Shown one piece after another: positions 2,080 through 12,328 of a stretch of DNA of 64,000 nucleotides (position 1 is the first letter of the stretch; every line of letters starts with the position of its first letter). Below the pieces are notes generated by a model that saw only the letters and a list, made by a program, of their open reading frames with translations, had not been told where the DNA came from and did not search any database. The stretch is taken from contig OX597824.1 of the NCBI GenBank assembly GCA_951406725.2, positions 96,162,001-96,226,000 of the forward strand, written 5' to 3'. The DNA is from Octopus vulgaris (taxonomy: Eukaryota). The translations under genes were made by a program, and so were the position numbers.

Positions 2080-2149
2080 CCAGAAAGGCGCGAATGGTAA
2101 AGCCCATCCAGGTCAACGGTCAGGTCACGTTTTTCTTTCCTCGCACGTA
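2080..2149 (-). CDS. Candidate alternative (mutually exclusive or poison) exon of YY1
   Basis: Bounded by ccttctcttttacttaatctagtaacacctctacag| and |GTAAGC. 70 nt, GC/CpG-rich island in an AT-rich intron; open only in the phase 1 to 2 frame. No transcript evidence available. Confidence 0.5.
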
Positions 2150-3823: not shown

Positions 3824-4042
<219 letters not shown>

Positions 4043-7617: not shown

Positions 7618-9556
7618 AAGCTTCTTACTACACAGCCACTCCTGTGTGTGGGGATACTTTCTTGATATTTTAATGGTCAAGGTGTTAGAAATTGATTTTA
7701 AGTTTCAGTAGGATTTAAGTACGTTGCTTGTGTTGAGATGTTAAAATGAATTTTGTTATGAATAACATCACTCAAATATCTAAACAGTTTATATTTTGAG
7801 TATTTCGGTTTCCATGTTTTAGGGAAACTAGCAGATGAATGTTTAGGCCGTTTCAAGTCTAGATTTTAGATTCTACCTAATATTATAGTCCGACATGTCT
7901 TATGTTTTGACTGTGGATCAATGATATACTTCTTGTAATTTTCTCCTGTATCATGTTTTGCCATAGAATTCTCAGAAGTATTAATCTCTACTCTACCCCT
8001 GTGCCGGTGGCACGCAAAAAGCACCCACTACACTCACGGAGTGGTTGGCATTAAGAAGGGCATCGAGATGTAGAAACACTGCCAGATCAGACTGGAGCCT
8101 GGTGCAGCCTCCTGGCTTCCCAGACCCCGGTCGAACAGTCCAACCCATGCTAGCACAGAAAACGGATGTTAAACGATGATGATGATGATGGTTGTAGCTA
8201 TATCTTCTAAGTGCTGTGTGAACTACATTGTGGGAGTTGCTGTCTTTAAGTCTTATGAAGGAGGACTATGTGTTTGATGTCCCCTGTAGAGTGGAAGCCG
8301 TACTATTGCATGATGTTACCGGTTGGTTATTATTATCTAAAAGGTTCCATCCCAGAGTGATCGTACATAGTAAGTGGCATCTACTTGTGTTACTTAGAAA
8401 GGCCAACAGTGATGAATTTGTTTGGCATGGCAGTTGCTCTTAAGGAAGTAGGATTTTTGACCAATGTTAGTTTTAGCAGATATAGACGAAAGAAAGGTAT
8501 TGTTGATTAAAAGACAATTCCTCCCTTGCAACAACAATATAATCCAAAACAATGCCAAAGTCGAACAGATTTTTCTCATGTTAACCTATCTTAAAAGCAG
8601 CAAGAGCACGTTCAACAAAATTTTCCAGGATTAGAGACAGTTGATGAATGTGAGTTTGCTGAGTTAATTAATAACCGTTATCCTAACAACTGATATTGTC
8701 GTCCCTCTAGAGAGAAACTTACCTTCTATTGTCAGGTTTTCAGAGAAATAACATGAAATGGATGTTGAGGATAAAATTATAAGGTAAATAGCATATTTTA
8801 TTAGAACTACTAGTAAACATTCCCACAGTTGAACAAGCTTTGCTTTGAATGTTTTATCAAGATAATCAAAATAAACCAGTCACTGCTCATATATTTCTAA
8901 TAGTAAAAAGTCAAATTATGAAAGAATCTTGAAAGTAATATTTAATTTAAATGTCACATAAATTAAATAAATGGACAAATTACAGGTGTGGATGTATGGC
9001 TAAAACGTTCGCCGGTAATTACTGGTCTTTATTTGTTTTATTAAACCCTTCAAGGCGGTGCCCCAGTATGGCCACAGCCCAATGATTGAAACAAGGGAAT
9101 AAAAGATGCCAATTACTCAGAAGGGTCTATTGAATTCGGTGTAGCTACATTTCACATAATTAAACGATGAAAAAACATCCATCTTACACACACACACTCA
9201 ATGTTAATGAAAACAAATTTACAATTGTTTTCGTATCGATCCAGACCCGACTGCATCACTCGACACACAACTCGCTGATGAAGCAACGCAATTTTTACCA
9301 TCATCAAAACACATGAATAAAAAAAGCTCCGTTCAGTCCGGGTTTTTATTTTTCTTTAAATCTTTCATCTATTTTCAAATATTTTCGGTTATTTTTATGG
9401 GTACACAATAAGCCTTCAGGATTTACAAAAATTATTTCTTGGGATGCTAGATTGTGTATTTACCTGTCGTAAACCTTATTTTTTTGTTAATCATTAATTT
9501 TAAAAACCAAAAGAGCTTCTGTGGCATTCGTAAATTATATTTTGGTATACCAAAGA

Positions 9557-9793
9557 GGTACTACTCGAGAACAGTGGTCCCGGTGCGCGCACTCGCGCTA
9601 GCTAGTCATGACTAGCCGATCCTTTGTGTTATTTACTTCGTTTAAAAATAATTTACTTTAACAAAAATTACTTATTTTGTGTTTTATTTACTTTGCTAGG
9701 GAGTCGTTGTAGGATCGACTAGTCACGACTAGCTAGCGCTGATGCGCGAATACGCGAGTGCGCGCACCGGGACCACTGTTCTCAAGTAGTACC
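9557..9793. mobile_element. CpG-rich TIR MITE with GG..CC ends (Merlin-like)
   Basis: 41-bp TIR GGTACTACTCGAGAACAGTGGTCCCGGTGCGCGCACTCGCG (1 mismatch) plus an inner 29-bp IR. Flanked by an identical 28-bp direct repeat. The superfamily assignment is tentative. Confidence 0.8.
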
Positions 9794-10985
9794 CGTAAAT
9801 TATATTTTGGTATACCAAAGATAGTGTGATTGTTTAGCCCAGGGAGTGCAAACCTTCGATCAAAGGCATTCCAGACACGATCATTTTATCTTTATTTGAA
9901 ACACATTGTCTAAGGGACTGCATTGTCCTGCGGTTTGATGGCGATTTCGTTGCTATTTCTAGCAGGTTGACCCTTGTGAATCCCGCAGAATAATCAGATT
10001 GTATTGTGCAAAGCAACGGAATATAGTTTTAGATTAAATGCACCAACGATTTTAACAAGTTTATAGCACAGGATTCGTTGGTATATTAGAAAAAAAGAAA
10101 GCCATCAACATCCGAACGCTTCCTCTAAATTTTTAATGACAATATCTTAACGTTTACGGAAGTGATGAAGGAGCAGGATTGTTGTTTTGGGTTGGACAAG
10201 AATAACAATAATAAGCTACTTGTATCGAGAAAGGAACGAAGAATACGAAGGAATAAACATTTCAAAATAAATCCATCATAATTTTACAAGCGTAGAAAAT
10301 AAACCAGACACGTAAAAGAAAACGATGAGAGAAATTACGCCATAAGAAATGGTTTAACACATCTTCTTCTTTAAGTGAATGTTGTAGCGTTATATTACCG
10401 TAAACACAAAACCAATTCATATTTGAGTGATAAGGGAAAATAGTATTTTCTTCCCTTTCGAAGATGTATAATATAAAAATTAAAAATCAACAAAAGCTGG
10501 TAGTGAAACTGCCCGTCTTTATCACCCGACTTATTTCGTTACACGGCAGCTACAAAATTTTTTAAATGCAGATAATAACCAATCGTTTATTTCAGAAAGC
10601 ATTAATCGATTTATATACACGAAACAACGTTTAAAATTATAGAGTTTGTTTAATTTTTATTTACAGATCAACTTACCTAGACCGAGTGAAAAATCGTGAA
10701 ATATACATTCACACAGCAGCGCGCACTTGCTGGCAGCCATGAAGCACACACACACAGACAAACACACAGACACATACATACGTATACAAACACATAGACA
10801 ATAGTGAAGAGACTCTGCAACATATCATGGAAATTCGACCAGTTTAAAGCTTGATTCGAAAATTAAATATCATACAACTATACTATAAGTTGTTATGGAA
10901 ATTTCTCACTGAAATTTATCGCGCTAATCAAGTTCTCGCTTGAGTATTTCCCTGCGAATTTCAAGGACGACCAAGTTAGTGTTCA

Positions 10986-11180
10986 CAAAAATGGCCGCCA
11001 TCCGCCATAACATATTTTCCGCCATATTCTCAGAATATGGCGGCGCCCATGGAAATCATGATGGCCGACTTCAAAATCAAAACAAACATGTGTTTAGCGG
11101 ACAATATTCATCAAAGATGACTCAAAATAGGCTCCAGCTTCCTTTAAAATGAATACAGAGCGGCTACATAAAATGGCCCA
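10986..11180. promoter_or_regulatory. Cluster of YY1-binding motifs in YY1 intron 1
   Basis: CAAAAATGGCCG, CCGCCATCC, CCGCCATAA, CCGCCATATT, AATATGGCGG, TGATGGCCG and AAAATGGCCC within about 200 bp. The YY1 consensus is AANATGGCG / CGCCATNTT. Confidence 0.8.
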
Positions 11181-11372
11181 GTTTGTGGCTTACGTCACAG
11201 AGAAGCTATGACCTTTTCAACATAGATTTATTGACTTTCTTTCTCGAACGGCAGCTTATCGGTCGGGAGTGTGACGGAAAGACTCAATGTAAGCAAGAAA
11301 CGATGTCGAGTTAATAAAAATAATAAGCGTATTCGGAATGATAGAAAACAGATAATCAAAGTAGAGAAATCA

Positions 11373-12246
<874 letters not shown>

Positions 12247-12328
12247 ATGGGTGCCAAAGTTTCTAGGACAGATTTTGAGTGGTCTTACACCCAAGAACCA
12301 CATGCTTCACGGAGAAAAGCAATCATGG
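12247..12328 (+). CDS. DEGS1: Sphingolipid delta(4)-desaturase (DEGS1/DEGS2 family) coding exon 1
   Basis: [27 protein letters not shown], the DES N-terminal domain with a Gly2 myristoylation site; donor G|GTAAGG; 82 nt. Missed by the ORF track. Probably co-orthologous to vertebrate DEGS1 and DEGS2. Confidence 0.96.

Follow-up and report, generated by a model that had tools for sequence, protein, structure and literature searches.

A YY1-site cluster in the first intron of octopus YY1 as a conserved, putatively autoregulatory element

Described systems and the octopus locus

The closest described system is the vertebrate YY1 gene. According to the consulted part of the study by Kim, Yu and Kim (2009, PMC2743690), the start of vertebrate intron 1 carries about five YY1 sites within 100 bp, with the consensus GCCATnTT, the first two oriented one way and the rest the opposite way; sea squirt, amphioxus, and sea urchin have 3–5. 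ChIP at the mouse cluster is positive, the zebrafish copy has demonstrated regulatory activity in cell lines, mutation of any site abolishes zebrafish promoter activity, and excess YY1 halves endogenous transcription via the sites. The same text describes the spacers as unconserved among deuterostomes, reports nothing of the kind in Drosophila pho, and concludes that the cluster is unique to vertebrates. A related case is the first intron of human UbC, in which YY1 sites are needed for full expression in a position-dependent manner linked to splicing; this intron-mediated enhancement resembles the present case in its first-intron YY1 sites but is non-autoregulatory and, in the sections consulted, without demonstrated deep conservation (PMC3680475).

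In Octopus vulgaris, the cluster is hosted by a YY1 orthologue bearing YY1 zinc fingers. Within the window (the whole 64 kb stretch of DNA analysed), coding exon 1 lies on the minus strand at 11378–11828 and comprises 151 codons, including an invariant REPO-type stretch; the frame from the ATG at 11828 to 11376 matches residues 1–151 of the YY1 proteins of O. vulgaris, O. sinensis, and O. bimaculoides with 100% identity. Spliced contigs in two of the four sequencing runs examined join the non-consensus exon-1 donor (11378/11377) to 3981, the start of exon 2 (3825–3981, minus strand, delimited by spliced contigs), so that intron 1 measures about 7.4 kb. The zinc fingers match those of fish and shark YY1 at 109 of 111 positions, termite YY1 at 109, and coral YY1 at 107, and the solved YY1 domain 1UBD at 116 of 120. 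Because of this near-identity to fish, shark, and 1UBD, the motif established for vertebrate YY1 is predicted to hold for the octopus protein.

An initial annotation had reported at least seven ATGGC/GCCAT cores in about 200 bp, located 200–400 bp past the exon-1 donor, several of them full consensus matches. Exactly seven are present, about 200–390 bp into the confirmed intron 1, at 10991(-), 10997(+), 11004(+), 11021(+), 11037(-), 11061(-), and 11173(-), and four of them belong to perfect GCCATnTT sites, of which the whole window holds 13. The GC content of the stretch is 41.7%, against 37.2% for the window. The proposed excess over background was borne out as well: 5000 dinucleotide shuffles of the region 10980–11185 give an expectation of 1.1 cores and 0.11 perfect sites, none of them attains seven cores or four perfect sites, and two larger regions have the same outcome. 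Likewise, none of 200 block-shuffled whole windows reaches seven cores or four perfect sites per 200 bp (the best value, six cores, occurs once), and the runner-up among the real 200-bp stretches has four cores, the background throughout being the 64 kb window and its shuffles. Six cores, three of them perfect, fall within 10991–11061 and constitute the conserved unit (10988–11065); the seventh, a perfect site at 11170–11177 on the minus strand, lies outside it.

The element as a whole spans 10988–11087 and reads, in the sense of the gene (minus strand), as a TTTGTTT box followed by five sites in the orientation >><<>. The box, TTTGTTT(TG), occupies 11078–11087 (-) and is found in eight of the 11 loci scored. 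Site 1 (11058–11068, -), identified by core scan and alignment, is the imperfect GCCATCAT, and site 2 is a perfect long motif preceded by a conserved GGGCGC leader (11033–11048, -). Site 3 (11018–11029, +) is perfect and inverted relative to site 2, site 4 (11001–11012, +) is the imperfect GCCATAAC, and site 5 (10988–11005) combines a perfect minus-strand motif at 10988–10995 with an extra, overlapping weak core at 10997 on the plus strand. The element is non-coding, being intronic by the splice joint, without an Rfam match, and with a stop codon two codons into the intron. A contig from sequencing run X9 that covers 10676–11406 differs from the window at two positions, neither within a site, in what is a low-powered comparison between close octopuses.

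The element at YY1 loci of other animals

A metagenome scan with an exon-1 alignment, covering 53 of 64 parts of the collection, returned at least 586 pattern matches and at least 68 YY1 loci; scans with the exon-1-end pattern gave no match in viral contigs and none in prokaryote contigs. The end of the exon could be placed in 67 of the loci listed (all but L068), of which 12 are apparently spliced and were set aside, leaving 55 apparently genomic ones. Clusters were called by the number of cores per 100 bp within the first 600 nt downstream, with a threshold fixed after the gap between the classes had become visible. Among the matches listed, 21 of the 55 genomic loci carry a cluster of 3–5 cores (equally high in at most 3 of 300 shuffles), and 34 are negative, with at most two cores per 100 bp (equally high in at least 28 of 300 shuffles), three of the negatives having less than 400 nt of downstream sequence. 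When near-identical introns are grouped, 15 of the 41 groups among the matches listed are positive. In every carrier scored, the sites start 210–440 nt past the end of exon 1.

Placement of these loci rests on the nearest named protein and a quick tree with long branches. Carriers comprise a bivalve (L001, 91% to Mya), annelid-like spiralians (L002, L003, L006, L008, and L014, weakly placed), ants (L004/5), a thrips relative (L009), termites (L010–13, 97% to Cryptotermes), a louse relative (L020), a fish (L058), and stony corals (L026–28, 99% to Oculina, and L023), together with L024 and L061, to which no taxon was assigned; the negative L043/L060, L064, and L067 are likewise unplaced. The negatives consist of one divergent clade with 23 loci, three loci of Daphnia type whose introns are tiny, and L015/16/19, L043/60, L062, L064, and L067. 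Every cluster-negative locus placed in the tree sits on a long branch, and the four placed members of the divergent clade share one of 2.4 changes per site among the spiralians. Several fast-evolving clades among the matches listed, Daphnia and the divergent spiralian copy included, thus lack the cluster entirely, and since 34 of 55 genomic loci do without it, YY1 genes can evidently run in its absence. The 23 loci of the divergent clade (L030–L066) appear to represent a fast-evolving YY1-like copy of a spiralian group with an altered REPO stretch, and hence a natural loss.

The annotation had called for an alignment of the intron across phyla, and in molluscs, annelid-like worms, and insects the cluster proves alignable and conserved. 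The orientation >><<> in gene sense is common to octopus, the bivalve, the worms L003 and L014, the thrips-like L009, the termite L010, and L020, and the gaps between successive sites are 24/16/17/13 in octopus (ignoring the extra weak core), 24/16/17/13 in the bivalve, and 23/14/17/13 in the termite. Sites were selected by the 5-base core alone, their flanks being left unused; of 70 cluster sites (15 loci), 39 nevertheless have TT after GCCATn, as opposed to 19 of 187 background cores (p 1.5e-13), and C occupies position -2 in 54 of 70 versus 50 of 187, so the flanks in the cluster independently fit the YY1 profile. A matrix built from the other 14 loci ranks three octopus cluster sites at the top of the 125 cores in the window. 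The TTTGTTT box begins 20–21 nt ahead of site 1 in seven of the 10 non-fish loci scored and 16 nt ahead of it in the fish, GGGC precedes site 2 in eight of 11 loci scored, and all 13 occurrences of GGGCGCMGCCAT in 415,073 bases fall at the cluster element.

A profile built from octopus, L001, L003, and L014, over regions chosen by eye, was searched against the same 415,073 bases. It recovers the insect loci and L061 with E values of 6e-14 (termite), 1.4e-11 (thrips-like), 5.5e-8 (ant), 2.3e-7 (L061), and 6.4e-5 (L020); matches to the fish (1.4e-3), L008 (2e-3), L024 (0.015), the corals L026/28 (0.03), and L002 (5.6) are weaker, and the coral L023 has no match in this search. Conversely, an insect-only profile finds the bivalve at 8e-13, octopus at 3.5e-12, and the fish at 0.42. 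Scores were compared with 300 decoys of each of two types, both of which keep the real sites of the target: type A shuffles the spacers, and type B also scrambles order and orientation of the sites. No decoy of either type reaches the real score of termite, thrips-like, ant, L061, octopus, or bivalve, from which homology of the cluster between spiralians and insects emerges as well supported at the level of sequence; for L020, two type A and no type B decoys do so, and for L024, 125 and 29. Sequence, position, and orientation are thus kept at YY1 orthologues across spiralians and ecdysozoans. With order, spacing, TTTGTTT box, and the GGGCGC ahead of site 2 common to the loci, the cluster is, as far as alignment can tell, one element and not a mere pile of motifs.

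In corals, intron 1 is about 140 nt long, and the YY1 sites lie at the start of intron 2 (L023:1410–1530 and L026:1610–1700), 305–400 nt past the end of exon 1, a distance that matches bilaterians. Two distant corals, whose exon-1 peptides are 73% identical, retain the leading pair of sites along with much of the intervening sequence. Type A and B decoys equal the real score in 5 and 12 of 300 cases for L026 (74 and 79 with the insect profile) and in 300 and 300 for L023. The coral clusters hence appear real, and their homology with the bilaterian element is a candidate. It is conceivable, if somewhat doubtful, that the array is a single element predating the cnidarian–bilaterian split, held at the same distance from the promoter as one of the oldest traceable animal feedback circuits, to which octopus would have added a layer that splices the array into an unproductive YY1 transcript.

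Proposed function and competing readings

The octopus cluster may be regarded as the local copy of a promoter-proximal element that is likely the same as the vertebrate autoregulatory cluster. On this proposal, the octopus protein would be expected to occupy its own gene and in this way to keep its level constant. By extension from the zebrafish promoter reporters and mouse ChIP of Kim 2009, an intact array would be needed for transcription at the normal YY1 level, and at a high level fuller occupancy would lower transcription, resulting in negative feedback. One step further, the element might work as a module of the downstream-promoter or intron-mediated type that depends on its distance from the start, with the TTTGTTT box and the GGGCGC leader serving co-factors. 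Taken as a whole, a conserved cluster with self-binding, activation at normal dose, and repression at high dose is the best explanation and a likely one; conservation itself speaks for constraint and says nothing about the sign of the feedback. The autoregulatory reading of the initial annotation thus stands as a prediction founded on a conserved cluster at a YY1 orthologue. Its alternative of an ancient or a convergent origin now leans toward the ancient one, with homology among protostomes strongly supported and the vertebrate link moderately so.

How far the element extends beyond protostomes depends on the comparison with vertebrates, represented by the single fish locus. The octopus element and that of the consulted Kim 2009 text (PMC2743690) share the host gene, the start of intron 1, a length of about 100 bp, about five GCCATnTT-type sites, and a co-oriented first pair followed by reversal. 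The fish locus fits that description, with the layout >><<< and an imperfect third site, GCCATAnT, and it also aligns with octopus. The two accounts differ in that the published one concerns deuterostomes and the present one molluscs, annelid-like worms, and insects, and in that the >><<> order of octopus and other protostomes, the conserved spacers, the TTTGTTT box, and the GGGCGC leader are absent from that part of the text. Homology between the protostome and vertebrate clusters is, on sequence grounds, quite probable. An improbable alternative is that only the protostome element descends from a single ancestor, repeated selection for self-sites close to the YY1 promoter having produced the clusters of deuterostomes and of corals independently. 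Such convergence would fit the score of the fish, which lies just modestly above its decoys (equalled under the spiralian profile by 5 and 7 of 300 type A and B decoys, and under the insect profile by 62 and 40), the fifth fish site, which is inverted relative to protostomes (the first four octopus sites fit the order >><<), and the corals, whose decoys are not beaten and whose clusters demonstrate that non-homologous introns can be occupied. However, the intron position is identical in octopus and fish, and they have in common the box, the GGGCGC leader, the orientation of the first pair with its spacing in the 24–27 nt range, and 17 identical bases around site 2 (shared also by the bivalve), all of which exceed a YY1 motif. 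Box and leader together occur by chance in 13 of 200,000 shuffles, in a test framed after an alignment that included the fish (A2, a MAFFT alignment in which sites 3–5 of fish and L002 are mis-registered).

Other readings accept the conservation and place its cause elsewhere. The sites might act mainly on splicing or RNA fate, with bound YY1 steering the choice between the weak exon-1 donor and a downstream donor so that an unproductive transcript provides post-transcriptional feedback. Precedent comes from UbC, whose intronic YY1 sites affect splicing (PMC3680475, in the part consulted), and an opportunity is offered by the non-consensus first donor of octopus. In the RNA-like run X9, a 758-letter contig that carries 27 loose letters runs from 11406 to 10676 at a depth of 26, the normal joint having 170. 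The exon-2 contig of the run starts at 3983, where a merge with the consensus-like donor at 10677/10676 would place it. From these contig ends, we infer an exon 1 extended by 701 nt (10677–11377, minus strand) so as to take in the entire cluster, a stop lying two codons into the extension. Yet the extension is seen in one run and is not evident in run X13, and among the other carriers the first donors are consensus-like and a downstream donor does not recur consistently, for which reason this very unlikely reading cannot explain conservation across phyla. The extension itself is a possible octopus extra, since X13 is without it, the joint is seen only as contig ends, and other animals have no matching donor. 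Even less credible is conservation of the inverted motifs at the RNA level, as a hairpin or a small non-coding RNA: although sites 2 and 3 of octopus make up a perfect inverted repeat of 11 bp, an Rfam search to E 1 gave no match, none of the five consensus pairs has compensatory base changes, and pairing of sites 2 and 3 beyond the fixed motif letters is found in 5–7 of 13 loci per position, the free n position included. The inverted repeat simply results from motifs that oppose each other. The gene on the other side of the promoter offers a further explanation, in which the main role of the cluster, and the reason for its retention, is control of divergent DEGS through a shared promoter. DEGS stands head-to-head with YY1 in octopus, L001, L002, L006, L024, and L067, the two are neighbours in human, and the DEGS 5' exon abuts the YY1 5' end; but eight cluster-bearing loci (L005, L008, L009, L010, L012, L013, L014, and L028) have no DEGS in 2.9–10 kb upstream, and L067 has DEGS and no cluster. 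As cluster and DEGS each occur without the other, retention of the cluster is unlikely to depend on DEGS, and we consider this explanation highly improbable.

In the openly available full texts searched, the cluster is not reported for any protostome or cnidarian. The octopus cluster is a cis-element conserved across phyla; with it, a functionally tested vertebrate element would reach into protostomes and, probably, back to the ancestor of bilaterians. The view of the element as a vertebrate novelty would thereby be overturned, and Drosophila would have lost it, like the Daphnia-type loci; such natural losses allow one to ask what replaces the cluster. To our knowledge, nearly all shared regulatory segments lie at developmental genes, mostly without a known binder. 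The YY1 cluster differs in that its host factor is broadly expressed and its predicted cognate protein is the product of the host gene itself, and it has a named predicted binder with near-invariant zinc fingers as well as a published vertebrate function. A feedback circuit, and not merely its parts, could have persisted for about 600 million years. Known regulatory segments shared by protostomes and deuterostomes number a few dozen, 25 of them in the consulted part of Frith and Ni (2023, PMC10735318). These and Bicore1/2 resemble the YY1 cluster as short non-coding sequences whose site pattern, position, and orientation are conserved at orthologues across both groups, and differ in residing at developmental genes such as Id, Znf503, Nr2f, Ptch, and others (PMC3410860, PMC10735318, as far as consulted). 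The YY1 gene is absent from the 25 segments of Frith and Ni (text and supplement, in the parts consulted), from the consulted text and searchable supplements of Clarke 2012 (PMC3410860), and from the Nasonia CNE supplements; the one "Yy1" match in the material of the first two studies is a motif label.

Neighbouring features of the YY1 locus

The first coding exon of DEGS, a sphingolipid delta-4 desaturase (Pfam Lipid_DES and FA_desaturase), lies at 12223–12328 on the plus strand and is preceded by a 5'-UTR intron at about 12060–12223. Its ATG at 12247 is 419 bp from that of YY1 and 1.07 kb from the end of the cluster, in agreement with the distance of about 1.1 kb given previously. The pair is head-to-head within 0.2–0.6 kb in the window (11828–12328), at L001:4737–5035, and in L002, L006, L024, and L067; apart from L024, these amount to four of the 18 listed genomic loci that have 1.5 kb or more of upstream sequence. 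The DEGS 5' exon of run X9 continues into the 5' end of YY1. DEGS2 adjoins YY1 in a table of human 14q32.2 (PMC2042987, in the part consulted). Conserved microsyntenic pairs are head-to-head with less than 1 kb between starts (Irimia 2012, PMC3514665), an arrangement that YY1–DEGS shares, although neither gene appears in the consulted main text of that paper. The linkage looks ancient and makes a candidate bidirectional pair. The suggested co-regulation of DEGS is partly supported: the head-to-head arrangement recurs in five other loci, but cluster and gene also occur independently of each other, and co-regulation may be a side effect.

The CRE-like site announced at about 11190 is present as TTACGTCA at 11190–11197. 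It belongs to a second block (11190–11214, minus strand) with what we take to be a half-site, AGGTCA (11209–11214), and, 17 nt downstream, TGACGT, presumably CRE-like, in a spacing identical in octopus and the bivalve. AGGTCA occurs 136–173 nt past the exon end in octopus and six spiralian loci (seven of 16 scored), five annelid-like ones having it at a like position, and in none of the insects, fish, or corals scored. In the spiralian block (L001, L002, L003, L006, L008, and L014), AGGTCA is followed by the CRE-like site in molluscs or by TGACCT, forming an inverted repeat, in three worm loci.

As regards the transcripts, word shares in runs X8–X10, which stem from one study, are 0.83–0.85, versus 0.89 expected with the exon-1 extension, and those in X14 and six other RNA-like runs are 0.46–0.56, versus 0.48 expected for the exons alone. 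A classification of X8–X10 as chromatin data was rejected, as X9 holds spliced joints. Translation might also begin internally and yield a short zinc-finger isoform, as the ATG at 10740 shares the frame of exon 2; in a weak test, a 30-residue query for such an N-terminally short YY1 matched just one unrelated repetitive protein. A poison exon considered in intron 2 was likewise rejected: the cassette exon at about 2080–2148 (minus strand) is in frame and part of the annotated isoform P0005.

The octopus YY1 start codon lies within a perfect YY1 motif, AANATGGC (11820–11831), and a YY1 motif surrounds it in all 11 loci checked (octopus, L001, L003, L004, L009, L010, L014, L023, L025, L026, and L032), two of which have no intronic cluster. 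A short way 5' of the octopus ATG, at about 11890, stands CACGTGAC. Within intron 1, a long inverted repeat at 9550–9800 appears to be a multicopy MITE-like element, with high contig depth in all four runs, and an E-box of the GTCACGTG type is found late in the intron of L001, L003, and L006, about 580–610 nt past the end of exon 1.
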